Positions 1 through 44,287 of a stretch of 64,000 bases of DNA are shown here, one piece after another; within the stretch, counting starts at the first letter, position 1; each line of letters begins with the position of its first letter. Position numbers and translations under genes: made by a program. The notes below the pieces were generated by a model. That model saw only the letters and a list, made by a program, of their open reading frames with translations. It made no database searches and was not told the origin of the DNA. Source of the DNA: a virus; the IMG/VR virus record IMGVR_UViG_3300045988_037736, positions 37,472-101,471 of that record; one strand, written 5' to 3'.

Positions 1-3000
1 CATCATTGACAAGGTCTATACTATATACCTTCTTACCATCTGCTACCTGGTCTGTAGCAGTGACAGAGTAATGCCATCCAGACTTTGAAGGAACATTCAT
101 GTAGTTACTTATTTGATTCTCAATAGTATTAGCCATTGAGTTAAGTAACTTTTCAGTATCACCTAAAGGTACTACTTGACCACTAGAATCTCTTGTGAAA
201 CTCATCTCCTCATCTGAGAAAGTCTCAATGAAGTTAGCTATAGTCTTGGCAGCTCTTCTGGTTCTACTGTTAAAGTTGATAAGTCCATCTACACTGTCTC
301 TTACTTGGGAAACAGTCTGTCCTTCCTTGTTCTGAGTTCTTTGTACTGGAGCAATAAAGATGTCTATGGGCTGTGTTCCACCATTCAGTTTGTCTTGATG
401 GAATACAATCTTCTTTCTATTGTCTCCCACCTTAACTATACCAAGTCTCTTTAAGAAATTCCTCTTGGCTTTTTGATAGCCCATTGGAGTTCCCTTATCC
501 TGTTCACTAAGGTCATTCTGTCCAACATCAAGTACATTATTATTCTCCTGTCCTCTTCTACTTGAGTCAAAGCTGGTTGCAGCTACAATAGGCTTAAGTA
601 GTTTGGTTACAACAGGAGAACCATCAGTATTCTTTACAAGGGATGTGCCAGTATTGCCTACTGCAAGGCTCCTTATAGGAGCCATGTTCTTGCTACCTGG
701 ACTATATTCAACTCCTGTAGCAGACATTACACTAACTGGTTGGAAGTGCTTATCCTGACCATCAACATTGATAGTTATTGGACCATTAGAAGATTCAACA
801 ACTGCAATGATAGGTAGGTCATTTTCAGTATATCCAAAGCCCTTAGATTCCATGTTGCTCTTAACCTCATCTGTAAGTGCATCATCTGTAATGAACATCA
901 CTTCAGAATCTCTAGTAAGAACTCCATCTCTTAGGGCATCCTCAATACCATACTTATCATAGTACCTTACTATAGGAGTATCAGGATGAGATTGCCTCAG
1001 ATAAGCTATATTCATACTGGTAATCATACCAGATTCTGGATTACCAACAATGAACTGATAGTTCATCTTCCTTGCTTGAGTTCTGATTGCTCTTCTTCTC
1101 TTATCAAAGAATGGAGATACAGGAGCATCTACCCTAGGAGAAGGAGTATCAATCTTCTTCTCATCTGACTGAGATTTAAGAACCTTAGCTACAACATGTC
1201 TTAGAAGGTCAGGTACTTGAGTTTCATTAGCTTCTGCTCTACCATCCATAGCATTTGCTCTTGCAGTAATAGCATCTGCAAACTCTTGTACAGTGTCAAA
1301 GCTATTGGCAGACAGTCCTTCTATAAGAGCCTTTACCTGCTCCTTTGCTTCAGCAGTAAATGAAGGTGCATTCTCTGCAACTCTTAAAGCTACTTCAGCG
1401 GCTTTACCAACCTCCTCATTGCTATTTTCAATGAATGTGTCTATAACAGAACTAGGTTGGGTTACTTCAATAGGAGTTTCTACAGGAGTAACAGGAGTTT
1501 CAACTTCACCCTGCTCAACCATATCAGATACTGTAGGACTTCCAACTCTTTCACCATCTTCAGTAATATGTCCTGCTTCAGGGGTACTACCTCCAATGTC
1601 AAATATAGTTGGACCAGATGGAGTAGGGTCAGGAATTGCAGCTGGCTCTGAGGCTTCAACAGGAGTTTCAGTTGGAACAACTTCCTCATTATTAAGGTCT
1701 CTTTGTTCTCTTTCTGAGTTATACCTGCCCATTATATCTCTATAGGTTTGAATGGTCTCTTCTATAGAGTTATAGCCTGTAATCTGCCCTTCAATAGGAG
1801 CCTTCTCATTTGCTCTTGCAAGATGCTGTTCAAAGTAAAGATTAACTTCTCCATCCTCAGCAGCATCCCTATCATAGTCAAGTAGCATTTCAGCACCTGC
1901 TTCAACATCAGTTACATCAACTCCACTATTACTTAGATAGTCAAGAGTAGCTGCAAAAACATCAGCTCTTGGGTCATTCTCTTCAAAGACTCCATTCCTT
2001 TCAGCCCAATCATAAATCTCTGACTTTCTTTCATTCTCTCTAGAGTATCTTTCAAACATATCTCTAGCTTCCTGAGGGAAATCATACCATTTACCCTTGT
2101 AAGACTGATTGGTAAGCATATCTTCTACAGCAGCTATTTCAGCTTCATCCCCTCTATTATAAATATCATCAAGTCTTTCTGAGAATTGCCAATAGTTACC
2201 ATTAGTTGCTATATCAAGGAGTTCCTCATTTTTCTTCTGTAGCATTCTCTGTTGTGCTTGATGTTTAACCTTTGCCACATACCTATTGAGGGCTTTAGGG
2301 CTATACATAAGAGCAAACTGAGAGTTCATAGCAGCTCTATAGTCTCTTTCAACTCTATTCCTATCTGCAATCTTCTTGGTAAAGTCTTGATGTATAGAAG
2401 TACCTACACTATTAACTTTATCAATTTCAGCTTGCTGTTCCTGACTATATCTATCTCTATGCTTTGGGTCAAGCATAAAGGCTCTATCACTTGCAGACAG
2501 AGACATAATCTCAGAAGCAGAAAGAACTGTAGTATCTACAGGGTCATTATATGTAACACCATCCCTCTCTACTGCCTGATGCTGAGCATTGAAACTGTAG
2601 TCTTCCTGAGCAGACTTTATAGACTTGATGTTTCTATCAAGTTCTCTAGCATAGCTTTCAGCCATAGCAAGAGTAGCTTGGTCTTCCTGTGAAAGAGAAC
2701 CTCTCTTCTGCTCTCTCTTCATCTCTCTTACAACTTGGTCAAGTTCAGACTTCTGTTCTTCAAGTTTAGAGAGTTCAGTTACAGCATTACTTAGTGAGCC
2801 AAACCTTGCTATAAGTCTCCTTCCTTTATTATTGAGAGCTGAGCTTGGAGTAGCATCTTCCTGTGAGTTAAGTTCAGTTGTTACCTCAGCTATTTCTTCA
2901 TCAAGTTGACCTATCCTCTTCTTATAGTCCTCAATAACTACCTTATTAAATACCATACTTGCCTTAACATCCTGGTCAATATTCTCTCCAAATATCTTCT

Positions 3001-5526
3001 CAATAGACCTGGTTTCTTTTGAAACCATATCCATCATGTCAAGCATTTCATTGGCATTTCTCTGTATAGTCTGAAGGGCTTCCTCTCTACTTATGTTCTG
3101 AGTTCTGTTCTGAGCTGATGCCATGAACTGTTCAACAGCCTTTGATTCCTCTGACTCAGGGTCTTGCAGATTCTGAGCATCAAAGTTTGCCCTTGCCTGT
3201 AGGTTAGCCATAACAGCTTCATGATAACCAGTACCTTCAAGGTCATTAAGAGTTATAATGTTACTAAACATTTGACCAACTCTTGCATCTCTTGCAGCCT
3301 TTTCATCATTACTTTCTATAGCCTCTTGATATTGAGTAAGCCATTCAGCAGTACCTCCTGCATTAAATAATGCTCTCTGCATACTTTCATCAGAGAAGTA
3401 GGTATTAAAGTGTTCAGCCATCTTCTCCCTCTGCTGATTGACAGCATTGATTTCAGTATTTGAGAATAAAGGAGTAAAGGCACTTCTCCAAGTAATACCC
3501 TTTGCAGTCATATTACCATTAGCACCTTGTTTCATACCAATGTTAGGTCCACCCATTGCAGTGGATAAAGCACCATAGACACCACTCTTTATAGCATCAA
3601 AGGATATAGCTGTATTACCTGCTGCTTGTAGACCTGCTGCAAAGGATTGCCAGAAGTCATTCTGAGCTGCTGTAGCTCCAGGGTTTGCACCATATTTATT
3701 GTCAATATACTGTTGCATTTTGTCTTCAGCATATGCCTGACCAAATGCACTAGATATATCCTGTGTGTACTCTTCAAAGCCTTCACCTAAAGCCTCCTTA
3801 AGCCTACCCTTAAAGGCTTGACCCTTAGTCATCTGTCTTGCTTGAGCTACCCATCTATCTCCCTGTCTTGCTATATTAACTGCATCTCCTACAGAGTTAT
3901 TTCCTCCTATACCAATCTTCCTAAGAGCATTCTGAACTCTTGGAGCTTGCTGACCTGCCTGCCATGTAGCATTGACCATACCATTTATAACAGAGTTAGT
4001 CCAAAAGTCATAGTACATAGCTGTGTTGGCACTTTCCTCGGCAGCTTGTCTATCTGCTGCCATATCAGCAGCATACTTTCCTTCAAACTGTGCTCTAGCT
4101 TCAGGGTTGGACTTTAAGTAGTCTGCTTGTTCCTGAGACATATTATGCTCTCTAGCATAGGCATCAATATCAGCATCTACCTTAGAAGCATATCTATTCT
4201 GAATATCTGTTTCAAGACCTTTCAGAGTTTCCTGTTTGGTCATAGCAGCATTCATGCCACCTTCAACTGTGCCTACTGCACCTGGAACAAGAAGATTTCC
4301 TATGTTCCTTGCCTTAGTCACTCCTCTTAGGAAGGATACTCCTTTTGCTGAAGCATTAAGAGTCTTTCCTCCCATAGCTACTTTTCCTAGCCAAGCAGCT
4401 CCTTTAGTAGCTGCATTAACAGCAGCAGAGCTACCAAATGAGAGGATAGTAGAGGCAGCAGTAAAACCATACTGACCAAATAACTCAAAGGGTGTATTAG
4501 CTGAAAATAAGGAGTTCTGTTGCTCAACAGTATTAAAGATAGGATTGTCAGATAGTCCAAGACTCTCCAATCTCTCTTGCTCCGATGGTGACCATGAGTT
4601 AGTAGTTGCAACCCTGTCACCATATCTAGTTACAGCATTATCAATTACATTCTCAAGCCATGACTCATCATCTTCAAGACCTATACCTACAGCACCACCT
4701 ATCATACCAGCAGCTCTGATAATCATACCAGCAGCACTGTCAATAAACTGAGCACCAGAGTTCCATGTTTTTTCAAGGAATGACTGATTGTTTGCTACTG
4801 TATTTTGATAGTAGTTACCAAGAGCCTTAGCAGCAAACTGACCTCCACCAACTGCTTCATTAGCAAGATAGGAGGCAAGAACCTGCTTTCTCTCCTCTGT
4901 AGACATTGATAGCTTATCTGTACCATTATACTCCTTATACATTGGAGAAATTTCTCCTGAGAAAGAATCAAGGTCAGTCAGGTACCTTTCTAGAGTCTCT
5001 GAGTCTAGGGCATTAAGCTGGTTATAGTAGGTATCATATAGTTGGGCAGACTTATTCTCAAGATAGGAAAAAGCCTGCTCCCTCATAGTATCTCCTCCTG
5101 TTAACTTAGCATCAATTAGGGCATACTTGTAATCAGGGTCAAACAGGAACTTCCACACAGAAGTGGAAGATTCCTGTAAATCACTCCTAGCATCAAGGTC
5201 AGATGCTAGAGCCTTCTTTGCTACATAGTCATCTCTCTGTCCTTTCGTAAGAGAGCTTCTGCTGTTGAATATCTGTTGGTCTTCTTCACTGTTACTATTG
5301 CCAAATATATCCATGAATACTGTGTTCCTAAAGTAGTTATCTTTTTGAACATCATCCATTCCTTGAATTTCTCTAGCATACTGCTTCTCCCATTCAGCCC
5401 TATCATCTGCACTAAGACCGGTCAGTCCCGAAAAGTAGGACTGATTATACCTTTGCTGTAGAGTCTGTTGTGACTTCTCTGAAGGAAGAGCAAACATTCC
5501 AGTGGGACCACCCGCTAATATAGGCA
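1..5526 (-). CDS. Giant virion/tail-associated protein (5' partial; >1840 codons), read with in-frame TAG codons taken as sense
   Basis: Start ATG at ~5526 (MPILAGGPTGMFALPSEKSQQ...). The frame stays open to the window edge except for repeated in-frame TAG codons, which is why the ORF track shows no long ORF here. Continuous protein-like translation with TAG=Q. Function unknown. Confidence 0.55.
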
Positions 5527-5550
5527 TAATTTATAAATATTTTTAAGTTA

Positions 5551-6939
5551 TTACATACCACTAGATGCATCATCATCTGCTACTGTAGCAGGGGTTGATG
5601 AGCTACTCACCTTAGGAACAAGCCAGAAGTGGTCATCTACAGTTGTCTGTGTCTTCACAGCAATCTCTATCTCATTTACATCATAGCCAGTTCCTGCCAA
5701 TCTTCTCCTTACATACTGTTGTTGAGTAGGACTCAACTGACTAAATTGTATATATTGGACATCTCCTGGGATAACATAACCTTCTTTATCCTCCTTATCC
5801 CCTCTAGAGTCAGGATTAGAAGCTTGTGCATTATCTGCTCTCCAGTGAATGTTACCTAATGGCTTTCTTTGCGCTTTAGCTTTTGCAACTTCAGCAGCTG
5901 TTGGAGTAGGTGTTGGAGTAGGTGTTGTAGATTTCCATGTTACTCCATCAGACTGTAAAATTTCAGTCCATTGCAGCTTACCATTACTATAGAATTTAGT
6001 CTTGCCATCAGCAGAAATATAATAAGGTTTAGCTCCTGAAGCAATACTATCCTTCTCCTTAGCATACTCAAACTGGTCTCTTTGTAGCTGTACTGAGGCT
6101 GCTTGATTAGCAAGAGACTGTCTTTGTGCAGCATTGATATACTCGCCATTCTCAGTAAACTGATAGGTAGGCTTAGCAAGACCTGCATACATACCAGTAG
6201 TAACACTACTTAGAACTTGCTGTCTTGCAGCATCTCCCCAATCAGCAACATTGGCAAGTTCATCATCCATTATCTGTCTGAACCCTTGTAGCTTTGTTCT
6301 AAGAGCTTCTGATATATTTGGATTATTAAGCTGGTCATTTACTACAGCATAGAACATCTCAGGACTCATGCCATTCTGCTGAGTTATCTGATATTTCTGA
6401 CCACCAAGAACTGTCTTAAATTCAGGGTCACTGAATAATGACTTACCTAATGCTTCTGCTTTTGCAGATGTTCTTGCAAGTATATCCTTACCACTTACAT
6501 AATCCTCACTTACTGTCTTTCCATGTAAGAAATCATCAAGGGAGAGATTCTCAACCTTGAATATAGCTGAGTTATCTCTTGCCCTTGTATCTCTCCTATA
6601 TTTTATAGCTTCCTGTCTGGCAGCATCTGCTCTTGCAATAGGAGTAATCTCCTTTGCATATCTTCTTTTGAGACCAAGGAGCTGCCTTCTGTTAGCCATT
6701 GTCATTCCTCTACTGAAGTCATCAGTAACAGTTTCTAAATCCTTAGCATATCTACTAAACATTGCATAGGCTTCAGGACTATTCTCCTGTGTTGCAATAT
6801 CTCTGAATGCCTCAGTCTGAGTTGCAAGATTTGCATACTGCTCTTCAGCTTCATTATAAGCTTTGGTGTAATCCTCTAGAGGCTTTACCAGCTGCTCATA
6901 TGTAAAAGGATTAAACCTACTATTTACAACTATATTCAT
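5551..6939 (-). CDS. Hypothetical structural protein (462 aa) with TPTPTPTPT linker
   Basis: Intact ORF in the track; Pro/Thr linker; sits between recoded virion genes. Confidence 0.6.
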   Translation of the reverse strand: MNIVVNSRFNPFTYEQLVKPLEDYTKAYNEAEEQYANLATQTEAFRDIATQENSPEAYAMFSRYAKDLETVTDDFSRGMTMANRRQLLGLKRRYAKEITPIARADAARQEAIKYRRDTRARDNSAIFKVENLSLDDFLHGKTVSEDYVSGKDILARTSAKAEALGKSLFSDPEFKTVLGGQKYQITQQNGMSPEMFYAVVNDQLNNPNISEALRTKLQGFRQIMDDELANVADWGDAARQQVLSSVTTGMYAGLAKPTYQFTENGEYINAAQRQSLANQAASVQLQRDQFEYAKEKDSIASGAKPYYISADGKTKFYSNGKLQWTEILQSDGVTWKSTTPTPTPTPTAAEVAKAKAQRKPLGNIHWRADNAQASNPDSRGDKEDKEGYVIPGDVQYIQFSQLSPTQQQYVRRRLAGTGYDVNEIEIAVKTQTTVDDHFWLVPKVSSSSTPATVADDDASSGM

Positions 6940-6942
6940 ATG

Positions 6943-9633
6943 TTAGAATGTTAAACCTCTTTTCTTTCTTTTAATCTTACCACCATAAGCTTCCTTTTGA
7001 ACAGGAGCATAAACTCCATGTCTACTAGCCCATGTTCTCCATTTTCTATCAACTTTCTCCCTACCAATATCTCCAAGAGAACTGAAGATGTTTGATAAGT
7101 TATCAGAGATAGCTTGTTCTCTTGCAAGTCTAGCTCTTGACCTTATATCAGCAGCAGCCATTGTACCTCTTAATGAGAAGTCTCTAGCTCTTGATAATGC
7201 TTCTTGGTTGGCTATATCAGCTTGCAGGAATCCTTGGGAGTTCTGAATATTTGTACCTCTATTGAACTCTTCAACTTGATTCCTTTGAGCAAGGTTATAT
7301 TCTTCAGCCTGTCTTGCTAAAGCACCAAGCTGGTTTAGATAGTTATTATCAGCAGCAAGAATGCCTGCCATTGCAGTGGCTCTGTTACCTCCTGAAGTAT
7401 TTAGTAGAGACCTTCTTGAGGCACCTGCCTCTGCATTCATCTTGTTAATGTAGTAATCCCTATCAAATGGTCTATAAGTTAGGTAGTTACCAATAGGTCT
7501 ATACCTTACAGGTCTGTAAGCACCTTTACCACTGCTTGCTTCAAGTATGGCTGAGACATCACCATCATCAGGCTTTGTAAACAATGAAGTTCCAAGACCT
7601 ATGGCAGAGCCTAAGATAGGCATATACCTCATCCAATTATCATAGTTGGGGTATTCACCTCCATTATCAGTAAGGTCAGGGGCTTTCTCATCAGTAGGAG
7701 CTACAGCAGGTCTTTCCTTATAGAATAGGTCTGTATAATCTGTATCTCCTTCACTACTTGTTCCTGTCCTTACATACTGATATGTTCCAGTTGTTGGGTC
7801 ATAGTCAGGAATAAGTAGGTCTTCCAAAGGAGTGCCACTAGCATCTGTTCTTCCTGTAAGATACATCCTCTTACCAGTCTTTCTTGGAGCTACTGGAACT
7901 GGACTACCTGCAAGGTCTATTCCTGCGTGCATACCACCCCAACTCTTGTCAGCTGTCCTTGAAGAGAAGATGTCTTTGGTAAGACCCTCTAGAGTAAGAG
8001 GCACATATCCTCTTCTTCCTTCATTATACCTATTAACTGATTCAACATACCTAGGTAGCCATTGATTTACCTCATCACTTCCCCAGTTATTGATGACATA
8101 GTTCCTTCTTGTCATAAATGGAGAGTTATCTCCATACATAATATCCCAGTCAATAGAGCCATTTGACTTATAGGGATTGAATCCTTCTTGACCAAAAGTA
8201 AGACCTGGAGTAGAGTTATTATAATTGAGAGTCTGCATCCAGCTACCTGTTTCATACAGGTGACCTCCTCTCGCAAACTTTCTCTCTTCTTTTCTTTCCC
8301 TTACCTGCTCCTGTACTTCCATCAACTTAGACATGCTGTCTATCATTCCTGCCCTACTTATAGGGTCATTAGGCCTCTCTTCAGATTCTTTGCTCATTTG
8401 AATAGCAGCATCTGCAAAGGTGAGAGGTTTTGTTCCTCTTAGTTTATATTTCTTTCTTACTGCTTTTGGAACTCTTAGTCTGTTACTAAATACATAATCA
8501 TTGAAGATAACTTCTCCCTCTTCTACAAGGTTAGGAATGCCTTCAGCATCCATTCCCATAGGAACTCCTTCATTAGGGTTTTCTTCATGTGTACCTCCAT
8601 TACCCACAAGAACAAGTCCTGTATCAAAGTCAGCTCCATGTGTCATAAGGTCTCCTCCAAAGGCATGATGCCACTTAGCAGCGTTCTAAGCAAATATAGC
8701 TCTCTTTCTAGTTAAAGGATTTTTACTATGGGTTAATTCCTCTGTAGTCTTTCCTGTTCTCTTCTTAGTAGCATTGAACTTACCTCTATTCTCTGGGTTA
8801 ATATGTATTCCTCCACCTTCTGCAAAGTACAATGGACCTCCATATGAGGCTATGTTTCTAAGTATATCCCTCTTCCTAGTCTATCCTATATTATACTGTG
8901 CATTTTCTAAAGAAGAACTAACATATTGCCTAGCAGTATCAGCTCTTTTGCTCATATCCTAATATAAATCATCTATATCATGACTAAATGCACCCTAACT
9001 GCCTAAATCATCATGATTAAAGTATCCAACTGTTGGAGCAGTAGCCATCTCCTAAGCTAAAGCATCATAATCAGTAGCACTTGATTTAAACTGTCCAGCC
9101 TGGGATATTTGATTATTTAAAGAACTTATAAGTTTTTCATTTCTTTCAGAACCAAATAAGTTATTAGTAACTCCTCCAAGTAGCTAACTTGCTCCCATTA
9201 CTATACCCCCAACCATTGGGTTTACAGACATTAAGGCTCCACCTACAGTTGAGCCTATACTACTAATTCCATTTCCTACTGCACTAGACCTTTTTCCTCC
9301 AATTACATTACCTACAATTGAACCAGTTAAGGCACTTCCTAGTCCTATACCCTGTTTGCCCAATTGAGTAAGTCCTAAGGATGGATTAGTAGTTCCAGAT
9401 GGTGGAAGAGGAAGGGTTGCTGAAGCAGCAGTTGGTTGAGTAGTTTTAGTAAGAGCTTGCAGCCCTGTTGATATAGCTTCTCCAGGCATAGTTTCTCTAA
9501 TACCAGGCATAGAAAAAGCATCATCCATACCTGGTATTCCAGCTAGATAATCAGGAGTACCTCCCCATGCAAAATAATTATTCCTCCCAAAAAGGAGTTT
9601 ATTTGTTCTTTTTTTAATAAGTTTCTTTGCCAT
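6943..9633 (-). CDS. Hypothetical virion protein (~897 codons) with several in-frame TAG codons
   Basis: ORFs 9184..9633 and 6943..8646 are in the same frame (top coordinate mod 3 = 0). Codon-by-codon reading of 8647-9183 shows only TAG interruptions (at ~8686, 8881, 8959, 8995, 9052, 9184) and no TAA/TGA. Ends at TAA 6943. Confidence 0.55.
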
Positions 9634-9733: not shown

Positions 9734-9789
9734 AATTACATAGAGTACTTAGTAGATACATTATATATTGTCACTCTCTAGTTTTTATG

Positions 9790-12700
9790 TGAGGCACTCC
9801 CTAGAGTTATTTCACTCCATGGATTTCTAATCCTTGCCCTACCATAGTGCCTTATAACATCTTTACCATCTTGTGCTACATAAGGAGACCTAGGAATATT
9901 AATCCTCCATATATTAAACTTCTTCCTTATATCTCTACTATTAGTGAGGTCAGTATAAGCTTTCTAATAGTCATTCTCTGCTTGGATAAAATCAAATGGC
10001 TTATCAGAATTATCCTTTTGGTCAAAGTTCCGTACTTCAGCATTAACTTCCACTGTGTCAAAAATTTTTGTGTAAGGAGAATTACCATTAGATATATAAG
10101 TGAAACTAAATGGTTTAAAGTTACCATAGAACTCATTATATACCCCAGTGAAGTTCTCCCATAGCCTAACTTTATCCTATTCCTATTTTATAGAGTAAAA
10201 ACCACCTTCAAAGTCAAACATACCTTCAGTTTCACCATAACTTAAAAAGGAAGTGAACTAGTTAAGCTTAGTTGAGAAACATAAAGCTTCTTCGCCATGA
10301 GCTGGAGAGAAATATACATCCCCATTCATATTATCAACAAAGCTTCTTACTCCCATTCCTGTAGGAGTCCACTCTGATAAGTCAACATCATTCTTAACCC
10401 ACTAACTCATTCCTGAAAGCTCACTTACATTTACTAATTCCTAACCATATCTATAAATACTTTTGGACTCGTTATCTATGAAGAATAGACCTGTTGAGGT
10501 AGGAATAATAGACCATTTATTAGCACATCCAATAGTAGAGGATAGAATCCTGAACCCATCTACTCTGTTTGAATTTCCTATCTCAATAGGTACTCCGTCT
10601 GTAGGATTGAGCTATACTCTAGAATTAAACATAATCTAGCTAATAGATTTTTCCTAGAAGCCAATAAGAGTATCATTGATGGAGGTTAGACATGTTACAG
10701 ACCCTTTATCAGCAGGAAGGTCTAAGGTACTAGCTAAAGTGACATTAGTCCATGGGTCAATTATAGACTAGGGATTTTTCTTTAAGGACCATGCTACCTA
10801 GTAAGGAAATGTATCTATTTTATAATAGTCCTTGTCTAGTGTTCTGTAGTTAAAGAAGTTATCTAACTAAGAGTATACTTCATTTATCTTATAAGAGTCA
10901 GGAGTAATGTCGAAGTTGGATAGCTGCCCTCTTTTAGTATCGTATCTTCCATCAAGATTAATATGTGACTCAAGCATAAATGAACCTATTTCTACTATCT
11001 AATTAGTATCATCATCTGCAAAAGGATAAGTCTTTACACAATCATATCTTGTACACCATGTATCCCCATAGGCATAAGGAATCGTAATTATCTTATGTGG
11101 AGTTGATACAAGAGGAACTGACTCACTACTTGGAACCCATAAGTTATTTTTGATAGCTTCATCCGATTTACCTCCAAACCTAGTGTCTGGGTCAACCCAC
11201 TATGTTAATTCAGCTATAGGTAATGTGGGGGAATAATCTTTATCCTCTTCAAGTAACTACAGAGTGCTATTCTGGATGGTAAACGTATTATCTGTATTAT
11301 CTGTAGATGGCTCTGAATACATTTTATAAGATGTAATACCAACTATATTTCCGAGAGATACCTTTAAGTTTAATAATACCTAATCCCCAAGATACTAAAA
11401 GTTATCATGACCATCCTGTAAGTTTTCAAAAGGACCCCATTTTATTGGCCCCGCATTCTGAAGAACTCCTACCCACTCACCATTTACATAGTGATGATAG
11501 ATTATACATCCTTTCTTCACTAAAACAGTCACTTTAGTTCCTGAGTTTTGTACCTGCCAATACCCTACTTCTCCTATCTTTACCCTTTTAACCAATACAC
11601 GCTTAGCTATGGGTCCAATGTAAGCCATTACAATCTGATAGGTTCCTAGAGCAGTCACACTTGTATCGTCAACATCTAGTACTAAGTTCCCCTCTTTGTT
11701 ATAAGTCCCATAAAAGGTTTTTGAGCCTATAAATGAAAGGATAGGATATGAAGTACTGGTAGAAGTATTATTCTCCCATCCAGAGGGGGTATACTATGAA
11801 GTTATAGTCTCACCAGTAACAGAAGTGTATGGTAGTACTGGAATAACCTTAGGGTTATCCTCATCATATAAAGAGAATACTAAGTGAGGAGATGATTTAT
11901 ACTTCATTCTTACTGACTCCCCAGAAGTAGGTACATTAGTAGGGGATACTTGTGAAATACTATCATCAGTACCAGCATAAATAGGATAAGCTGATGTGGC
12001 TGATACAATATCATCTACATTTCCAAAGTATAGTACATCCTAGTCTAAATGTGGAACACGAACAGTTAAGCCTGTAACCTCTTTAGAAGAGAATAACTTA
12101 GGAGTTGTAATTTTAATATTGTGGTTATTAGAGTTAAAAAAAGTTGACTTACTTTCAAAATACTTTAAATTGGAAATAATCTTCCATTTTAGTATAGCTG
12201 TTCTATTTCCGGATTTCTCTATAATCTCAGGAGACCTGACAATATCATTATTTAGTGAGCCTGTTCTATGCCAAGGATAAACTAAATATTTAACAATACC
12301 TGTCTTATCATCATCTAAAAAATCCCCTCTTAGTATTTTATCTTCAAAACAACATGATGATACAAATCCTCCATTAACAGTAGTATTAGGAGTAGTACAG
12401 TTCACTGGAAATCCTACAGGATGATGTATAAATCCTCCAGCCTGAGAACTAGCTTTAGAGGTCACTGCTAAATCTATATCTCCATACAATCCATGTAGGC
12501 TAGCGGCTCCAACAATATTTAGCCTTGCTCCTTCTAATTGAGTAGTATTTATATAGGACCCATACTCAATTTCTGGGGAATGTAAAGTAACTAAGTTACT
12601 ATCAACAGCAAAAGTTGAATAATGAGACTTTATACCATCAGAGGGAGAAATAATTTCCTATATTGACTTATTGGAATCTCCTGGCAGAGATGACTATATT

Positions 12701-14553
12701 TCAGCACTTCTATTACCTCCACTGAAAAGTGTATAATTATGTTTATACTAAATAGTCGACCCCTAATCTATCGAGGTAGAGGTTTCTTTTGGCTTTCCAT
12801 CTACATATACAGGAGATGGCCTAAAGAACCAAGATGACATTGCATATGGGTTATTCATGTGCCTTCCTCTCACACTGTAGACAGTAGGATTTAAAACTCC
12901 CTAACATATAATATTTCTCTCCGCTGGCTTAGGGAAAACAACACAAGTTCTAGCCCTTCTTACTCCAGCTTTTAATAATGAGGCAGTTGCATTAGGGAAT
13001 AACTAAAGTTCCTTAGTATCCACCCCGTCAGTAGTGCCCCAAAAATATGAATTATTTAACTCTACATCAAGAAAACCATCACCATCACCATCACTATTCC
13101 TTATGACTTTGTTTAATGGAATAGGTTCTGACCATTCTCCAGTCTTAAACTAAAATTGAACTCCTAATCTATATGTTTCTCCTGCCTTAAAATGACCAGG
13201 CTTAAACTATGGTAGATAAGGATAGTATTTATTTATACCCTAATTATCATAAGTATCTTCGGCTAAAAAACAATCTGTTAACCCTAAAGAGTCCCCATTT
13301 TCAGCCTCTTCCTATTGAAGTAATGTAGTTAGTTCTTTAGTATTTTTCTGAACAGTAATGTTTCCATAAAACATCACTCCTTCTTTGCTAGTGATAGTTC
13401 CAGCTAATATTGTTTGTCCCCCAGTATATAATAGTTTAGCAGGGTCTTCTATTGAACCAGTAAGACCAGTATCTGTATATTCAATTGTTTTTACCAGCTA
13501 ATCCTCAGAACCAAACACATCATACCAGTATTCTCCTTCAGCACTTTCCTCCTAGCAATCTTTTAAGTCTAAGTCAGCTACAATCTTAACTGTAGGCTAT
13601 GCGTCTAGTGAAGTTCTATGTATAGAATAAACCCTTATATAATCAAAGTTATCAACATTTTCTACTTTAATTGTGAAAGAAGTTATAACCTTCTCTTCTG
13701 GATTACCAGCTCTATCATAATTCCTTATATACTATATGGGAGATACATAGAATATGTTACTTTCTTGCCCATACTTATTAAAGTATGTAAGAGCATATTG
13801 AATTACTCCAGGAGAAAATTCTCCATGACTGGAACTTCTACCTACCAGTACTCTTTCTTTTAACTATAGGTTCTATACAAAATCAAATGGAGACTCAGCT
13901 CTGTATATCCAATTTCCTTTTTCATACCACTTTTCTAGATTTTCTATAACTTCCTAGGAAACTCCCTCACTTTTCTATGGATTTGAGAAATTAACTCCGT
14001 CTACTATAACTTTACTAGCTATATCTTCAGGAAGTTTCAACTCTGGGGCAGTTATATTAATAACTCTAGGCTGGTTAATTCCATCTGTCCAATACAACTT
14101 ATTCACAAGAACTGACTCACTATCCCCTAATATTTCTAGAGGGTGATTAGCATCAAGACCTAGCACTCCTTCAAATAGAGTAACTTTAATCCACTCCCCT
14201 TTATCTTCATGGAGTCTATATATTCTAGATACTTCCTGAGTGTCATTCTAACTTACAGTAAATACTACTAAGTATCTATTAAGCACACAATGTCCTACGT
14301 ACTACCCATCAAAAACAACACCAGTGTCCGTATTTCCCTTCTCATTAGTGATAGAAAACCCAGTATCACTATCCCTATTAGTAAGTCTCACATTTAAAGC
14401 ATCCCATAAAAAAGACTCATCTTGTCTTGATGGGTGAACATCTCTCCTTAGGCCTTTAAATATATGATTATCTGAATACATCATGTTAATATAATTAATG
14501 AAGTTTGATATACTCCTTAGAACCAAGAGTTTTAAACCCTTTGCTATGCTCAT
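9790..14553 (-). CDS. Tail-fibre-like giant protein (~1590 codons), TAG-recoded
   Basis: ORF pieces 14302..14553, 13975..14166, 12040..12489 and 11395..11658 all share one frame (top coordinate mod 3 = 0), separated only by TAG codons (e.g. ...VVFDG-TAG-YVGHC...). 3' end approximate; it lies upstream of the terminator at 9702. Confidence 0.45.
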
Positions 14554-27897: not shown

Positions 27898-28194
27898 TTA
27901 TTTTCTATTCTCCCTTATAATAGAATCAAGTTCTTTCTTAGACCATGATAATTCTTTGAAACCTGCCTGATGTTTACCTCTAGGCAATCTGCCTGCTCTG
28001 ACATAATTATCAAATGTAGCTCTACTTATATTAAGGTATCTACAGGCTTCATACTTACTGAGTCTCTGTTTCTTATCAACAAATCCTTGAATAGCCTCCA
28101 CAACCTGCATAGTCTCTTCATGGTTAGAACTAATGGAACCTTCATCAATTCTATCGGCTATACGTCTTAATAGATTGCTTATTATGTTTAACAT
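27898..28194 (-). CDS. HTH DNA-binding protein (MerR/excisionase-like)
   Basis: YLNISRATFDNYVRAGRLP helix-turn-helix signature. Confidence 0.45.
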   Translation of the reverse strand: MLNIISNLLRRIADRIDEGSISSNHEETMQVVEAIQGFVDKKQRLSKYEACRYLNISRATFDNYVRAGRLPRGKHQAGFKELSWSKKELDSIIRENRK

Positions 28195-29812: not shown

Positions 29813-29886
29813 TCGCACAAAGTTAAAACAATAAATCTACTTACACAATAGAATAAGTAGATTTATTGTGATTAGAAAAATTATAT

Positions 29887-30938: not shown

Positions 30939-30941
30939 TAT

Positions 30942-33804: not shown

Positions 33805-33832
33805 ACTTACTAGTATTTGGTTTCTTATTAAT

Positions 33833-36202
33833 CTATTTTCTTTTGAGTTCAGCATCAGTTTGAGCTTTCTTCTTATCAAAGGCTAACCTTTCTCTGTCAA
33901 GTTTGAGCCTCTCATCAAACTCTCTCATCTTTTCAAACAGATTAGCTCTTGCCTCTTCAGAAAACTCCTGCTCTTGGATGCCATCTTCCTGACTTTGAGA
34001 ACCTATACCTGCTATAAGTATCTTAGTCTCATTATCTCTCTGATTCATTGTATCTTTGAGCTGCATTTCAGCTTCCCTTATCTGAGCTTCCATCTGAGCC
34101 TATTGTTGCTGAGCCTGTAATTGCTGCTGTTGAGCTTCCTGCTGTCTTTGCATAAGCTCCTGTTCATTCTTCTCAACCATTCTCTGTTTTTCAGCAAGAG
34201 AAGAGCTATTATAGAGCTTCATGATAGTGGAGAAGGTAAGAGTCTGATTCTGCAAAGCTGCCTGAGCAAGCATATCCATCTTCTGCTGTAACTCCTGTAG
34301 TCCATTACTATTATCTACAACAAGGCCATAATCATTTTCAGAGAACTCATCTCCATCTATGTCCATAACCTTACTTGAATTATCAGAAAGAATATACTGG
34401 AACTTCTTACTTCTGCCTCTTAAAGCTATCTTAGCTGTTTCAAGGAATGCCTCAAGAACCCTCTTCTTTACATCATCATGTATGATAAAGAGCCATTCAG
34501 TTATATGAGAAGATTGTAAGGTAGCTCTTTCGACACCACCAACAGTCTCTCTATTACTTATCTGACCTTCTCTTTGCCTAGAAATACCAGCCACATCAGA
34601 CATTTCCATCTTGATAAACTCAAGAAGATTGGTATATTGCTGTATAGTATTACCAAGTTCAGCATTGACAACTCCAGAACTTGCATTGTTAAGAGCACCT
34701 GCAAGCTTACCTGTAGCAGCACCAATATTGCCTTCCTTAAAACTATCTGTAACTACAATACCATTAGTCTTAGCAAAGTACATCCATTTCTCTATCTCCC
34801 ATCCTTTAGGAACCTTAGCAAGGTCAAGGTTAATAAGCATACCCCAGTTTCTTGAGATTAGCTTGTTGAGCCTATCATGAATTGTATCATAGAGATAGTT
34901 ATAGGGCTTCATCATATCAACAAGAGAGAAAGGCTTGTTGTCATTAAGGTTATAGATAGAACCTATAATACCAAAATGGCACCTTGAAGGATTGGATAGT
35001 CTGTTATACTGAACTACTCTAGGTCTCATGTTGACATAGATGTCATTACCTATCTTTGTCCCTTCCCAGGCTTCATTGATATATAATATCTTTTCCTCCT
35101 CACCTTTGTCCTTATCTATAACGTAAGTTTCTGGGTAGAGATTAAATACCTCTTCACCTGTCTGAGGGTCGTAAGACTTAACTTTCTTAATTCTCCTTCT
35201 TGATTTCCAGTAAACTCTAAGTACCCTTATATTTCCTGCAACATCAAAAGGAAGAAGTGAAGTGCCTACACCATCTGTCATTCCTATGGGGTCCCAGAAG
35301 AAACCTTCCTGAGAAGTAAATTCTTCCCCTATCATGTGCCCATTTACAAACCCCATTCTATCATCTATGTTATCCATAGAGTCAGTTACTTGGTCTGTGT
35401 TATTGGGCATCTTTTCTATGTACTCCATGTCCTTTTTGGTAAGGACATCATAATAAGTGTCTATGATTTTACCAGGACTCCAATAGTCCTCAAGTACAAT
35501 CATATCAGCATCCTCAATCCTGTTACTATATCCTGACTTGAATACTCTGACTTTAAGAGGATTTAGTCTTTCTATGATAGGTTCACCACCTACAATATCA
35601 CATTGGTAAATCTCTTCACCTACTGCCATTGCATCAGTGAAACCTTGATTAAAGAGGAAGGGGAAGTTGAGTTCCTTGGAATAGTGGTTAAGGAGAGCAT
35701 TAGCTCTCACTTCTCTCATATCTTGCCACTCAAATGTAAAGAAGTCATTGAGCTTCTCTAGCTCTGCATTGAACTCTTCCTCTGACTGAGTCTCTTCAGA
35801 TAACAGTTGCTGTACTCTTGCAAGTAGTTCCTGCTTCTTGTTGTTCTCTATTTCAGAGATAGCATTTGGATTAGTTACAACTACCCTATAGTCAAATACT
35901 CTCTTGGACTCTTCTCCCCTAAGAACATTTAATTTACTATTCATTATAGGGTAATGCTGAATCCTTTCAGGTATGTAACCTGCCTTTATATTATCAGGGT
36001 TCAATACCATTGCAAGGTCACTCATGTGAAGCCTACCATTAAGTAAATCATAGTTGATTTTCTTATGTATCACACTCTTCCTTACCAAAGAATAGTTGAA
36101 AAATGTCTTAGAGTCAGCCCAGTCAAGGTGCTTCTTTCTCCAAGCCTTATTCTTTCTGGAGAATGGCAGTTGTTGTGGGGGTAAATTTGTGAAATCACTC
36201 AT
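33833..36202 (-). CDS. Portal protein candidate (~789 codons), TAG at 34100
   Basis: The 700-aa ORF ends with TAG (plus-strand cta at 34100-02) and continues in frame into 33833..34093. Size and position directly downstream of the terminase large subunit fit a portal protein. Confidence 0.5.
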
Positions 36203-36302: not shown

Positions 36303-39300
36303 TTACTGTATATACCCTTGGGAGTAATTCCTTTGGAAGAAAGAATCATTGCCTAAGTATGAACTACTGACTTCCTCCTGTGCCTTAGCATTAAGATTAT
36401 CTCTATACAGTATAATCTTCTCTTGTCTATACAGCATAACCATACCTAATGCCCTGATTCTATCCACATTAAGTTCAGGAGTGTAGGAAATTAACTCTTC
36501 AAGTAATGCTCTATTTCTTAGAGAATAGAGCCTTGGAATATTGACCTCTTTCTCTTCTCCATCCTCCTTTATTATAGTTGGAACTGGCTGAAGTAGCCAA
36601 TCCCTTATCAGGTTATTAGCATAATTGTTGATAGTAGCATTCGCATTGATACCTTTTGCATTTGAGCCAAAGGCAGAATACTTAATCATCTGTTTGTCTC
36701 TTAAATATTCAGGAGTATCTGCCAGTAGGTGTGTGCATTCCATTCTGCTAAAGTAACCATACAGGCCCTTCTTATTGGATTCATACATGCACTTGGCATT
36801 ATAGAATAGACACAGCATTCTTACTATCTCAAAGTTATCATCTGCAAATGCCTGCCTACCAGTGTATTCTGCTACAATTCTGTCAGTAAACAGGTCAAGT
36901 ACAAAGGTTGAAGAAAGAGAAGAAGACTCTGCCTAATCATTATCCACAGGGTCATGGCCTATAATATATCTCATATTGAAATCATCCCCATTTGCTTGTT
37001 TCTCAGGCATTTCAAATATCTCAATAGCACCTACTGTTGAATTGTCAACTCCATACTTTCTGATAGGCACATCATTACCTATTCTAAACTCTACCTTATT
37101 ACCACTTGCTAGGGCAAGATTACCTATGTAAACATCATCAAAAGCATGAGGGTCTGAGTCAAGTTGAGCCAATCTCTCAGTAAGAGCTACTGTAGGAAAG
37201 TAGGCAGCCTTCACTTTAATGATAGCTTCAGCTGGTGTAATTGGGTCCTCGGCAATAACTCTTAATACTGACTTAGGGTCAGCAGAATATTTAGCTTTGT
37301 GTCTTGCCAACAGAATTTCTATGAGAGCCTTTGTTACATCAGAAACACCATCCTTGTTGTAACATCCTGCCCTATTTACATAAGAAGGAAAGAAAAATCC
37401 AAAGGTAGGCTTTCCTTGCTTAGGTCTGTCATAGACATTCTCAATAGCCAGAATATTGTAACCATCTGGATTGTAAAGAAGAGTTTTTGCCGAACTGAAG
37501 TCTGACTCATCCTCAGCAGCAGTATTATGAGTTACTATATTGTTAGCCAAGTAGGTATGACTTAATCCAGCAGTTAAATTATATACTTCTTGTTCACCTA
37601 TCTCTTCTACAGAAGTAACTTTGTGAACTATTATATCCTCTGGATATTTTTGAGCCTTCATACTCGGATTGCTATTATAATAGTCCATTATCCTTTTAAG
37701 GCAATCTCTCTTGTGCGGAACAAGAAGTTGAAGCACACCACACACTCTTGTACAATTATGTCTCCCTGATATAGATAGAGTAAACCAAGAATTTCTATCT
37801 TTCCTATCAGAACATAGTTTTGGCTTAGTCTCCACAATAGTGCCAACTACTCCAAATTTTCTCCACAGTACTTTAACTTGCTCTAATATTTTCCTATTGC
37901 TTTGAGTTAAAGATATATATCCGTCTCTATTAAAGCTTATACTACCATCAGTATCATATAATCCAGATAGCAATAGTGAGGTATCATCTCTTGTAAGAGT
38001 CTAATAGTTGATAGGAAGCCTTTTATTGGATTTTACTTGCCCCTAAATACCTAATTCTCTTAATTTATTACAAATACCTTTAATTCTTATATCCTCGTAT
38101 ATTTTTCCTTTCTTGGTAATATGAGTAGCAGATAATGACCATTCATATCTATGCTTTACATAGTCTAAAAGCTCTTTATCCTCAGAACTATACTTGGGGG
38201 ATTGCCTTAATCCATAAGAACCATCTCCAATAAGCATACCTACTAATCTAGGGTCAAACATGGTATCTGTCCCAAATATTGGAACTTCCCTACTCTCTAT
38301 AATTCTATCTCCTACACTTAAAGCTCCAGCATTTTTGAATACTTCTTCATAATACCTTATAGACCCATTATGATTCATTCTTTGTTTCTGAGTAAGAATT
38401 GGATGGTCTGTAGAGCATCTAAGTTCATTTCCATTACTCAGTTTAATAAGTACACATGGTTTTTTAGCAATACTTATAGAACTCATTATAGGTTCTTTGG
38501 TAATCCCTCTTGTGAGGTGAATATTAGGTTCAGTACCTGACTCAAAGGAGTCTGTAAATCCTATGATACCATCCTCTCTCTTTAAATCCTCTATATTGAT
38601 ATTCCTGCCATCTAATGTCCATACCTTAGTACCAGCACATACACAACCTACAAGGTACATTGTAGCAAATGTATAGTCACCATCTTCTACAGACTTTCTT
38701 GTGATGTCATACAGGGATAGAAGTCCCTTAAATGAACCCATCTCCTCGAATAGAATCCAACCTCTCTTACCTCTTAACTTCTCTGAGTCATCCTTTGCAG
38801 AAACAGCAAGCACCTGATTCAATGACCCACTTTCAATACCAAACTCATCCTTGTAGCCCATCTGCCATGCCATCTCATTAGGAGAGTTCTTTAACATGAG
38901 CCTAGGGAATGGAGTATTTTTGAAGGAGAAGTTAATTCCAGGTTTGAACTTAGAGAGTGTGCCATCCTTACTGTCACTAAGATACTCTTTCTGATAAGCA
39001 GTAAGTACAGTAATAACCCTCCTCTTTACTTCAGTAGATTCACCAAGTATAAGGTTGTGAGACATTATACTTGCAAGACTATATGACTTTGCACAATTAT
39101 GAGTAGTTATAAAGTCCCCTACTAAATAACAGGAGTCTTTAGAGTCTACAGTAACACATTTACAAGGAGATACCCCAGCATACTCAATATTGACTATGGC
39201 AGTTTTGTTCTTTCTTGATAAAGCATTGGTGCTACTATAATGTACACCACTCTTCTTCCTTGGCAAATTAAACAGTTCTTCTCCACCATATACTGCTATT

Positions 39301-40709
39301 TCATAGCAATCAGAGCATTGTATGTAACCATTAAAAGCTTTATACCTTGCTCTGCTCTTAGATATCTTGGTGTTATATCCAAGACTTCTAGCTATAAAAT
39401 CCACATCTTCGATTAGTCTTTTTGAAATAGAATTTAGTGTAGGTACTCCTCCATGTATAGAGCCATCTGTATCAAATAGCCCTTTTAGGACTTTTAATCT
39501 TACATCCCTTGAGTTGTACTTGTATTCTTCAGGAATAAACTTATCTATAGATTTTGCATTATTCAGTCCATAAGACTGCAGGATACTATTCCAATTAGGA
39601 ATATGTACTCTATAAGAATATTTACCTGCCCACTTAGTATATTTGTAGGGAATATAGTTCTTTTCTATATCAAAGTCCTTATCTATTTGGGTAAAATAGC
39701 AAGAACCATGCCTAAAGCACCCATCCCCTAATAGAAGTCCAAATGTATAAGGTTCTACCAGAGTATCTTTATATGGCAAGTTTATTCCTTCATTCCCAGG
39801 AATGAAACAGTTATATTCAATACCAGAAGGAATCCTATAAGAGGGAGTTCTATTAGTCTTGTAATTAGACAATAGCCAAGCTGTATTGACTGTCATATTC
39901 TTCCCCTTCCTCTCTATATTCCATAAGTGGTCATCAGTAGCAAACACCGTTCTGCCATCCCTAAGAGTTATCTTGTAGTAAGGAGAGACTTGGTCGTAAG
40001 GTATATCTATAACAGTACAGACAGAATTATCTGTAGCATATAATTTATCTCCTATCTTAATATCCTTCCACAGCTTCCATCCTTCTGGGGTAAACACCTT
40101 CTGGAAATAGGGGTGAGCACCCCTCTTTGCAAGTTCTATGGCATGTTTACCAGCCTCTCTTGCTTGATGAAGATAGTGAAATCTCCAATAGATTCCTTCA
40201 AAGAAGAAGGGGAAAGACTCAACTCTGACAGCTTTCCTTGTGCCAGAAATTACCTTATTTACCATCATGGGACAGTAATTAAGAAACCAATAAAGGAATC
40301 CTGTGACCCATTCTCCATCACTCTCCCTTACATAACCCTCTCTACATCTCCTCATCTCCTCATCCCAGTGCTTTCTGTATTCACTGTTAGGATTAGAATT
40401 TGGTCTTAGAAAAGTATAGCAGCCATGCTTCATAAAGTGTAAGGCTGGTTGTCTGAAATAATCCATATCCTCAAGTATATGAGGATTGGCAAGGTCTACT
40501 ATAATCCTTCCTTGCTCATCTCTTGGTCTATCCTTAGCATATACCCTATTAGGAGAGATAAGTCTTTTTATAAGTTCTACACTATTTATAGTGTCCAATA
40601 ACTCCTCCTTGACCTCCTCAGGTAAAGACCCAAGGAGTTCATCAGTCAAGGGGGTCTGGTACTCATTCATTTCAATAGCCGAGGTATTCTCCATAGATAA
40701 TATCTTCAA
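36303..40709 (-). CDS. terL: Terminase large subunit (TerL) precursor containing two LAGLIDADG inteins, with TAG codons at 38043 and 36933
   Basis: Three ORF pieces (38043..40709, 36933..37973, 36303..36818) share one frame and are joined only by TAG codons. Intein 1 (~39096..40118): N-terminal splicing blocks (TPEGWKLWKDIKIGDKL; FATDDHLW), LAGLIDADG motifs (LLLGDGCFRHGS, LKGLFDTDGSI), and ends ITTHN|C. Intein 2 (~37524..38645): starts G|CVCAGTKVWTLDG, block B CSTDHPILT, LAGLIDADG motifs (LVGMLIGDGSYG, LSGLYDTDGSI), and ends IVTHN|T. The extein has a P-loop-like AKRG...CAKS and a Walker-B-like WILFEE. Confidence 0.7.
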
Positions 40710-43683: not shown

Positions 43684-43929
43684 TTATAAACCCTTATCTA
43701 AAAACTTAAATCCATATTTCTCTTTGTACATCTTCTCCCATTCTTCTATACTTGTTGAAAGGACATCAGCTGAGCCACAGTCATCACAGTAAAGTAGGTC
43801 AGGAAGACCAGCATCTCTTATTTTAAGAGATAGGCAATGTTTGCAATAGAATACTGGTTCATTATTATATTTAGACTGCAAGTCTGCCTTTATCTCTGAG
43901 TTGCCCATATATCTCCTTTCTAAGTTCAT
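43684..43929 (-). CDS. C4 zinc-ribbon protein
   Basis: CKHC...CDDC motif pair; start placed at an internal Met to avoid overlap with the upstream ORF. Confidence 0.35.
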   Translation of the reverse strand: MNLERRYMGNSEIKADLQSKYNNEPVFYCKHCLSLKIRDAGLPDLLYCDDCGSADVLSTSIEEWEKMYKEKYGFKFLDKGL

Positions 43930-44287
43930 TAAAGGGCCTGCTGTTCTTTCTTGATGTCCTGTTATTGAAAGGTCTCTTTGGGTAAATGAACCCATAAATT
44001 GAAACATGACCTCTTCTCCAAGCCCTCTTTACAGATTTGAACTTTGACACTGCCTCAAACCTAAGTAGTGTGAGTTCCTTTACATTCTCTTTGTTCTCTT
44101 CCATGTTGTTCAATAGTAGTAAACCATTACATATCCTTCTCTTGAAGGAAGGATTGAAACCACATCCTCCCTAGGTATCTTATAATCATTGGCAAAATCT
44201 GCTAGCTCCCTGATAGTCTGAGCTTCAACAGCATTCATTATCTTTCCGTTCTTATACATATCTTCTCCCATAATATTTCGATTTAGT

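Follow-up and report, generated by a model that had tools for sequence, protein, structure and literature searches.

The 64,000-nucleotide stretch of viral DNA considered here (positions 37,472 to 101,471 of IMG/VR virus record IMGVR_UViG_3300045988_037736, hereafter the window) raises a question about the genetic code by which it is read: if translated with the standard bacterial code (table 11), many of its minus-strand late genes, among them those for the portal, the terminase large subunit, and the muzzle protein, are interrupted by amber (TAG) codons, and it has to be asked whether these genes are broken or whether TAG is read as an amino acid. A first-pass annotation had proposed that TAG is recoded to glutamine (Gln) in the late module of a crAss-like phage that carries its own suppressor tRNA. 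The core of that proposal is upheld by the likelihood of Gln at the TAG sites, by the CAG and CAA codons that occupy such sites in sister phages, and by a tRNA with a CUA anticodon and a tRNA-Gln body; the window very probably belongs to a Steigviridae-like crAss phage that uses genetic code 15 (TAG as Gln) in part of its late module. The analysis covered the 64-kb window, and the standard-code relatives aligned to it were crAss001, IAS virus, cr116_1, cr85_1, and bajarodcaudo virus 1.

Open reading frames (ORFs) were defined with TAA and TGA as the only stops and are hence bounded by these two codons by construction, which leaves their length as the real test. The minus-strand stop-to-stop ORFs between positions 1 and 44280 contain 91 in-frame TAGs; trimming to ATG starts leaves 85 sense TAGs in 14 genes, and a further 8 occur in three genes beyond position 44280, giving 93 in-frame TAGs in 17 minus-strand genes for the whole window and not one in-frame TAA or TGA, as the first-pass annotation had stated of the interruptions. 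Because TAA or TGA occurs at ~4% and ~10% of codon positions when these ORFs are read in their two other frames, the longest TAG-rich frame (1,606 codons with 40 TAGs, free of TAA and TGA) cannot be a product of chance. When genes are called again with TAG as sense, ATG-initiated ORFs of at least 100 amino acids cover 93.6% of the minus strand of 1..44280, compared with 67.6% under table 11 and with 68.8% and 74.8% in controls in which TGA or TAA, respectively, is taken as sense. Genuine gene ends had been expected to use TAA or TGA, and the stops of all 57 complete gene models in the window are indeed TAA (44) or TGA (13), never TAG. The context 3' of the sense TAGs is the same as that of CAA and CAG codons.

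Homology is continuous across the TAGs in the portal, muzzle, ring, cargo, and terminase alignments. Profile searches with the stitched proteins, i.e., those translated through TAG, bore out the identities assigned to them earlier: a crAss portal PHROG matches the stitched portal ORF over residues 5–794, across both of its TAGs (E = 3.6e-143), and terminase large-subunit PHROGs match the long ORF upstream of the portal in three pieces (best E = 6.7e-78). The muzzle product matches a PHROG of virion structural proteins, and its IAS virus homolog aligns over 28–1609, across the 40 TAGs; two other stitched proteins are fitted by crAss-specific Pfam families, namely crAss_CARG1 (cargo protein 1) and CrAss_Ring_3_4 (ring protein 3/4). 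Alternatively, the TAGs might be ordinary nonsense mutations in a decaying or defective phage, or in a misassembled contig, in which case the fragments would be pseudogenes; table 11 does break the terminase, portal, muzzle, and fibre genes into pieces. However, all 93 interruptions are TAG, with no TAA or TGA despite the frequency of these codons in the other frames, and a matching suppressor tRNA is present. Moreover, 76 of 82 alignable TAGs are kept in a second IMG/VR contig, assembled independently and belonging to the same species (IMGVR_UViG_3300045988_064014, hereafter 064014; 95–99.8% identical). The differences between the two strains in the stitched frames are mostly synonymous, with 221 of 338 falling at codon position 3; for example, there are 30 synonymous and 3 non-synonymous differences in the portal, and 24 and 4, respectively, in the tail-fibre-region gene 32053..32847. 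This preponderance of third-position differences indicates that the stitched frames are under purifying selection across the TAGs. The TAG-only interruptions, their conservation between strains, and the suppressor tRNA effectively refute the nonsense-mutation or pseudogene explanation, which is left with a negligible probability.

On the grounds of portal, terminase, and capsid homology and of its synteny with crAss001, the window is judged to be part of a Steigviridae-like crAss phage. The portal DNA is 72–75% identical to that of IAS virus, cr85_1, cr116_1, DAC15, crAss001-like isolates, and bajarodcaudo virus 1, and protein identity to the four relatives L001–L004 amounts to 70–76% for the portal and 75–80% for the capsid. 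The best nucleotide matches among GenBank phages (72–77% identical) are limited to conserved genes; the exact genome was also sought in GenBank phages by megablast of 25 kb, and nothing above ~77% identity was returned. Steigviridae/Asinivirinae is the taxonomy of the fetched classified relatives crAss001, IAS virus, cr116_1, and cr85_1, and Bacteroides is the host of the cultured relatives. The minus-strand gene order is collinear with crAss001 from gp14 to gp47 (tblastn) and runs from small genes through terminase, portal, tail-fibre region, lysis genes, capsid, ring and tail proteins, muzzle (gp44), cargo (gp45), and gp46 to the virion RNA polymerase; most of the remaining late ORFs have homologs among crAss structural genes.

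For the meaning of TAG, the stitched proteins were aligned, with X at each TAG, to the five standard-code relatives, and substitution tables were taken from the same alignments. Gln makes up 63 of the 231 residues opposite TAG, against a background of 3.6%, and is the maximum-likelihood meaning of the codon by 116 log-units over threonine, the next best, and by 127 over lysine. In three standard-code IMG/VR sisters, whose backbone proteins are 87–99% identical to those of the window, CAG or CAA is found in 18 of 19 alignments to backbone TAGs; the genes compared were 21249..22244, 23850..25004, 25140..25628, 29388..29813, the portal, and the terminase, and only portal site 794 departs from this, with CAG in the nearest sister but AGT in the two others. 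Judged from these codon alignments, the CAG and CAA codons of the sisters are the footprint of single C-to-T changes in Gln codons. Seven TAG sites differ in the same-species strain, four of them as exchanges between TAG and CAG/CAA, and in a reciprocal test the in-frame stops of five other recoded relatives align to Gln of the window 70 times and to TAG of the window 23 times. The prediction, from the alignments and the tRNA body, that TAG stands for Gln in this phage is thereby supported.

The candidate suppressor, tRNA(CUA), lies in a tRNA array upstream of the late module; its ARAGORN label, 'Pyl', derives from the anticodon alone. Among the 24 other tRNAs of the window, the closest to it is tRNA-Gln(UUG), with which it has 23 of the first 26 nucleotides in common, including the whole D-arm, as well as U1 and an A discriminator before the CCA position. 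The first acceptor pair is weak, being read from the sequences as U1-G72 in tRNA(CUA) and U1-A72 in the phage tRNA-Gln. The tRNA(CUA) of the window is matched best in the databases by those of two Suoliviridae phages, cr53_1 and cr60_1, whose genes are 77–78% identical over the full length and annotated as tRNA-Gln. A degenerate tRNA(CUA) pattern finds 74 IMG/VR contigs; in those loci of at least 8 kb, reading TAG as sense raises the long-ORF content 3.2-fold (median), and reading TGA as sense brings no change. By its sequence, the tRNA of the window belongs, as a somewhat divergent member (~83–85% identical), to a family of suppressors that goes together with TAG recoding, and its charging with Gln may be deduced from the tRNA body and the Gln signal at the TAG sites. 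A sense codon with another meaning (pyrrolysine, lysine, glutamate, tyrosine, or tryptophan) could be argued from the ARAGORN name and from the many TAG sites opposite which distant relatives have N, D, S, T, E, or K. However, such a meaning is highly improbable in view of the likelihood margins in favor of Gln, the CAG and CAA codons of the sisters, and the acceptor 5' strand, D-arm, and discriminator common to tRNA(CUA) and the phage tRNA-Gln(UUG), as well as of the fit of tRNA(CUA) to the canonical tRNA model. No Pyl-related family was met among the part of the window ORFs scanned with Pfam and PHROGs, and Gln has been identified at TAG by mass spectrometry in two other crAss-like phages (Peters 2022; PMC9523058).

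Under TAG-to-Gln recoding, tRNA(CUA) with its tRNA-Gln body would be made from the array upstream of the late genes and charged with glutamine, presumably by the host glutaminyl-tRNA synthetase; Gln would then be inserted at UAG, and the 17 genes would be translated to their real TAA or TGA stops. The oppositely oriented gene block has neither an in-frame TAG nor a TAG stop and is therefore readable under either code; it could be translated before the suppressor becomes available, and the late module, which is untranslatable in the absence of suppression, would follow after the suppressor has accumulated. Suppression could instead be partial, TAG acting mainly as a stop that attenuates or times expression and gives rise to truncated products along with some full-length ones. 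Such a role would agree with the avoidance of TAG in the opposite-strand block, with the lack of an anti-release-factor-1 factor among the scanned window ORFs, and with a published model that treats recoding as a timing device (Borges 2021; bioRxiv 10.1101/2021.08.26.457843). It would also agree with the L,D-carboxypeptidase-like lysis gene, in which the TAG at 28153 is aligned with the in-frame stop of relatives and is followed two codons on by a TGA-TGA back-up; this TAG has the look of an ancestral amber stop, with translation now continuing to the back-up stops. However, there are 40 TAGs in the 1,606 codons of the muzzle gene and 3–11 in each fibre-region gene, so that a read-through of 0.9 per codon would leave essentially no full-length muzzle protein (0.9^40, ~1.5%), and ~98% per codon would be needed for half of the full-length yield. 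These TAG-rich genes align to homologs over their whole length, and in three genes TAG constitutes 57–65% of the Gln codons, which is the pattern of a normal sense codon. Partial suppression is accordingly regarded as improbable, and efficient reading of TAG as Gln is preferred.

Several observations nevertheless weigh against the recoding. Gln represents only 27% of the residues aligned to TAG, as opposed to 50% for ordinary Gln codons; many TAGs occupy poorly conserved sites, so that the Gln assignment depends on those TAGs that lie at conserved sites and on comparison with the sisters. The meaning of TAG is predicted for this phage from its sequence, not from its proteins or from tRNA charging. 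When part of the ORFs of the window, beyond which another ~35 kb of the genome extends, were scanned with PHROGs and Pfam, no release factor, aminoacyl-tRNA synthetase, or other code-change gene was found; in that no release factor 2 or tRNA synthetase was seen, the window differs from the clades of Borges et al. The bias toward lysis genes described by the same authors is likewise not evident: the amidase and holin genes have no TAG, two lysis-region genes have one each, and the heaviest TAG use falls on the muzzle and tail-fibre genes.

The recoding is unevenly spread, TAG use being heterogeneous among genes (chi-square 237, df 35, p = 7e-32), and a comparison with close relatives bears on how it came about. 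Among the 80 closest portal loci in IMG/VR, tRNA(CUA) together with in-frame TAGs is found only in the same-species contig. The next relatives, with portals 96% and 90–91% identical, are clean under table 11 and without tRNA(CUA) in the syntenic array; IAS virus also has a syntenic array without a CUA tRNA. Since the closest sister, with the 96%-identical portal, has neither an in-frame TAG nor tRNA(CUA), the recoding is lineage-specific, as had been suggested at the outset. The segments that are extra in the window relative to its sisters are the ~418-nt segment with the suppressor, a segment with two TAG-bearing genes (49064..50882), and both terminase inteins; nothing in the sisters corresponds closely to the fibre region. 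Identity to the sisters is 34–38% for the muzzle protein and 56–61% for the ring protein, as against 82–99% for the genes next to these two (89–92% for those right beside the muzzle). Such replaced segments (the muzzle, the ring protein, four tail-fibre-region genes, one intein, and the 1.8-kb insert) hold ~80 of the 93 TAGs and have a G+C content of 0.32–0.35, versus 0.38–0.42 elsewhere; the backbone shared with the sisters (82–99% identical) holds ~8 TAGs, each traceable to CAG or CAA. Between the window and contig 064014, which do not align below ~8300, the muzzle gene is 99.8% identical (9 of 1,610 codons differ) and other genes differ by 2–5%; a near-identical muzzle amid more diverged neighbours suggests a recent exchange of this module within the species.

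These comparisons make import by recombination the most likely source of the TAG-rich segments, the donors being phages with a longer history of recoding; a backbone poor in TAG stops would have gained the suppressor and, either afterwards or simultaneously, acquired host-range and accessory modules from such phages. A different origin would be drift from CAG to TAG in place for every TAG, once the suppressor had been acquired, with the TAG-rich genes simply evolving fastest. The backbone TAGs did clearly arise from CAG or CAA in place, and tail, muzzle, and receptor-binding genes are generally fast-evolving in phages. Drift without import is nonetheless rather unlikely, given the contrast between the muzzle and its immediate neighbours, the lower G+C content of the segments, the muzzle TAG positions that are in some cases common to distant recoded phages, and the 99.8% identity of the muzzle between strains that differ more in other genes; furthermore, nothing close to the fibre-region genes, intein 2, or the 49064..50882 insert is present in the sisters, and these segments are for that reason taken as replacements rather than as products of drift. 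Two results, on the other hand, tell against import. The IMG/VR comparisons brought up no donor whose muzzle or tail-fibre gene is closely similar, which also speaks for drift; outside the species, the muzzle is matched at 42% identity at best, by a recoded contig. The relation between TAG density and divergence from the sisters is also marginal (Spearman rho −0.34, p = 0.05), although genes outside the fetched sister loci score zero in this test, and the gene-by-gene comparison was relied on instead.

The state that preceded the recoding may be represented by the closest standard-code sister, IMGVR_UViG_3300045988_042591, in which none of 32 late-strand ORFs ends in TAG (1–7 do so in other relatives) and TAG may simply have been unused. 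This fits the evolutionary path put forward together with the timing model, in which the loss of TAG stops comes before recoding and close standard-code relatives have few or no TAG stops (Borges 2021; bioRxiv 10.1101/2021.08.26.457843). A fuller scenario, offered tentatively and with somewhat less than even odds, is that a backbone without TAG stops gained the tRNA(CUA) segment of ~400 nt and then captured recoded muzzle, ring, tail-fibre, intein, and accessory modules, the code acting as a one-way gate for gene exchange. If this scenario holds, recoded modules cannot flow back into relatives that lack the suppressor, the window shows recoding at an early stage, its backbone having undergone only ~8 CAG/CAA-to-TAG changes in place, and recoding spreads by recombination of host-range modules and suppressor rather than by gradual drift alone. 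In addition, eight related IMG/VR contigs (L053, L054, L077, L094, L119, L124, L125, and L129) have many in-frame stops and either a portal ~75% identical to that of the window or syntenic ring and muzzle genes; because they are scattered among standard-code relatives, recoding is patchy across the group.

The gene models that result are collected in Table 1 and amend the first-pass annotation in several respects. Its statement that almost every large late gene is affected was too broad, since 22 of 36 gene models are TAG-free, including the major capsid gene and 5551..6939, and the gene that it placed at 1..5526 and counted as interrupted, the virion RNA polymerase, has no TAG. What it described as one gene at 30942..33804 is three ORFs in different frames (30942..32045, 32053..32847, and 32844..33803), each ended by TGA or TAA; a single frameshifted gene was ruled out, as each ORF has its own ATG near its start and its own stop, with overlaps of a few bases. 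The genes given as 9790..14553 and 33833..36202 (portal) do bear TAGs, but in both the last TAG had been taken for the end, and homologs align as far as the real stops at 9736 and 33803. The terminase, given as 36303..40709, is recoded as well, although two of the five TAGs of its stop-to-stop ORF lie upstream of the start and only three, two of them in an intein, are real. Recoded genes do lie within the range 1–44280 to which the recoding had been assigned, but others (44992..45318, 49138..50172, and 50304..50876) extend it to 50.9 kb. For the remaining genes of the list, TAGs were found in 6943..9633, 20446..21230, 21249..22244, 23850..25004, 25140..25541, 29388..29812, and 29887..30938, with some ends amended.

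Table 1. Features of the 64-kb window, in order of position; percentages in the fourth column are the TAG share of Gln codons, and single positions in brackets are those of the TAGs.
Feature	Coordinates	Strand	In-frame TAGs	Remarks
Virion RNA polymerase gene	1..5530	minus	0 in 1,843 codons (0%)	Cut by window edge; 111 CAA/CAG codons
gp46 homolog	5551..6939	minus	0	
Cargo protein 1 gene (gp45 homolog)	6943..9633	minus	6	Pfam crAss_CARG1, 4e-57
Muzzle/virion structural protein gene (crAss001 gp44 homolog)	9736..14553	minus	40 (65%)	GC 0.349
Tail ring protein 3/4 gene	20436..21230	minus	4 (25–33%)	CrAss_Ring_3_4 match at residues 17–239 spans the TAGs
Backbone structural gene	21249..22244	minus	1 (21719)	CAG in all three sisters
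Major capsid protein gene	22307..23821	minus	0 (0%)	98–99% identical to sisters
Backbone structural gene (gp31 homolog)	23850..25004	minus	1 (24098)	CAG in sisters, CAA in same-species strain
Small late gene	25140..25628	minus	1 (25466)	CAG in sisters
L,D-carboxypeptidase-like lysis gene	28145..28558	minus	1 (28153)	Ends TAG-AAT-TGA-TGA
Lysis-region gene	29388..29813	minus	1 (29681)	CAA in sisters
Tail-fibre-region gene	29887..30939	minus	7 (25–33%)	No homolog found in sisters or GenBank relatives
Tail-fibre-region gene	30942..32045	minus	11 (58%)	TGA end
Tail-fibre-region gene	32053..32847	minus	4 (57%)	
Tail-fibre-region gene	32844..33803	minus	3 (25–33%)	N-terminus resembles that of 32053..32847
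Portal gene	33803..36202	minus	2 (34102, 33835; 4%)	CAG at both in nearest sister
Terminase large subunit gene	36303..40694	minus	3	Two inteins; one TAG in nuclease domain (36935; CAG in sisters)
Terminase intein 2	37524..38645	minus	2 (38045, 38003)	374 aa, LAGLIDADG type
Terminase intein 1	39096..40118	minus		341 aa
tRNA array	44286..49005	minus		21 tRNA genes, upstream of and co-oriented with late module; holds suppressor and tRNA-Gln(UUG)
Segment with suppressor	44521..44938			Absent from standard-code sisters
tRNA, anticodon CUA	44852..44924	minus		tRNA-Gln-like body; ARAGORN; Rfam tRNA, 55 bits
Small ORF adjoining suppressor tRNA, putative gene	44992..45318	minus	2	
Amidase endolysin gene	45608..46207	minus	0	Peptidoglycan-binding domain; inside tRNA array
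HNH endonuclease gene	47266..47742	minus		Inside tRNA array
tRNA-Gln(UUG)	48933..49005	minus		
Insert gene	49138..50172	minus	5	In segment 49064..50882; GC 0.33–0.34
Insert gene	50304..50876	minus	1	In segment 49064..50882; GC 0.33–0.34
Oppositely oriented gene block	53293..64000	plus	0 after starts	Helicase at 3' end; stops TAA/TGA
ORF just upstream of tmRNA	56229..56645	plus		C-terminal Cys/His motif
Transfer-messenger RNA (tmRNA)	56883..57278	plus		Full length; Rfam RF00023, 70.2 bits (threshold 47)
Rfam tRNA match	60667..60747	plus		Missed by ARAGORN
Rfam tRNA match	61150..61286	plus		Missed by ARAGORN; 137 nt

Some further features of these genes may be added. The four tail-fibre-region genes, the two insert genes, and the small ORF adjoining the suppressor have no PHROGs or Pfam match, and the functions of the tail-fibre-region and insert genes are assigned by position only. 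The adjacent fibre-region genes 32053..32847 and 32844..33803 have similar N-termini (MRKF..., then a W-rich motif) and look like paralogs with a common attachment domain. Both terminase inteins have homing-endonuclease domains and are absent from the standard-code sisters; the first is absent from the same-species IMG/VR strain as well, which for its part has ~1 kb of extra sequence at window position 36776–36781. The Cys/His motif of the plus-strand ORF just upstream of the tmRNA is like that of the HNH endonuclease in the tRNA array. The tmRNA itself was not reported by ARAGORN; its tag frame, from reading the alignment, ends in ...MAA followed by UAA, and two other crAss-like phages, cr106_1 and cr125_1, have annotated tmRNA genes. 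Of the two tRNA matches found by Rfam, the 137-nt one may carry an intron or an insertion.

For annotation, code 15 is needed if the portal, terminase, muzzle, cargo, ring, and fibre genes are not to be called as fragments, and the 'Pyl' label of the tRNA should read suppressor (Gln). The window adds one more Steigviridae-like gut lineage with a very recent amber recoding, its 96%-identical-portal sister still using the standard code. The two make up a clean natural pair with which to study the onset of recoding and the way in which release factor 1 is overcome, and with which the co-travel of recoded host-range modules and the suppressor tRNA can be tested. TAG-to-Gln recoding of late genes with suppressor tRNAs is already published for the group (Yutin 2021; Borges 2021; Peters 2022) and is not a new phenomenon, and the current understanding of it remains unchanged; what the window suggests as new is the mosaic distribution, in which the TAG-rich genes (muzzle, tail fibres, and ring) are replaced modules, and an early, patchy recoding, which are modest departures.

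In the survey of Yutin 2021 (PMC7886860), crAss-like phages read TAG as Gln or TGA as tryptophan, mostly in late genes and with the aid of suppressor tRNAs, and the code changes between phages a short phylogenetic distance apart; among its examples is a terminase interrupted by two inteins in which extein and intein parts alike contain TAG codons. The phage of the window agrees with those phages in its use of TAG as Gln mostly in late genes and in its phage-encoded suppressor tRNA, but its recoding is patchy, with TAG in 14 of 36 late gene models and concentrated in replaced modules, and its fetched classified relatives (crAss001, IAS virus, cr116_1, cr85_1, and bajarodcaudo virus 1) are clean under the standard code. 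A homologous tRNA(CUA) with an identical D-arm lies upstream of the packaging and structural module in cr53_1 and cr60_1 too, and the cr60_1 terminase also has an intein; however, these phages belong to another Crassvirales family, Suoliviridae, and their suppressor stands alone or beside a tRNA-Met just upstream of the terminase gene, whereas that of the window is part of a 21-gene array. With Lak megaphages and the TAG-recoded clades of Borges et al., the window has in common the recoded late structural and lysis genes, the replication genes readable under the standard code, and the suppressor tRNA. Its nearest points of comparison are the sisters IMGVR_UViG_3300045988_042591, _031323, and _049815 and Bacteroides phage crAss001, which have the same gene order and tRNA array; the IMG/VR sisters are 90–96% identical to it in the portal and 98–99% in the capsid, yet the standard-code sisters differ in their muzzle, ring, and tail-fibre genes and are without tRNA(CUA), in-frame TAGs, terminase inteins, and the 49064..50882 insert. 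Finally, the tRNA(CUA) resembles the supE (glnV) tRNA-Gln(CUA) of E. coli in its tRNA-Gln body, its CUA anticodon, its predicted insertion of Gln at UAG, and its weak first acceptor pair. The supE suppressor is a host mutant that works with modest efficiency, UAG still serving as a stop in the cell; the tRNA of the window, in contrast, is borne by the phage, has an A discriminator as in the phage tRNA-Gln, and would serve genes with up to 40 UAGs.

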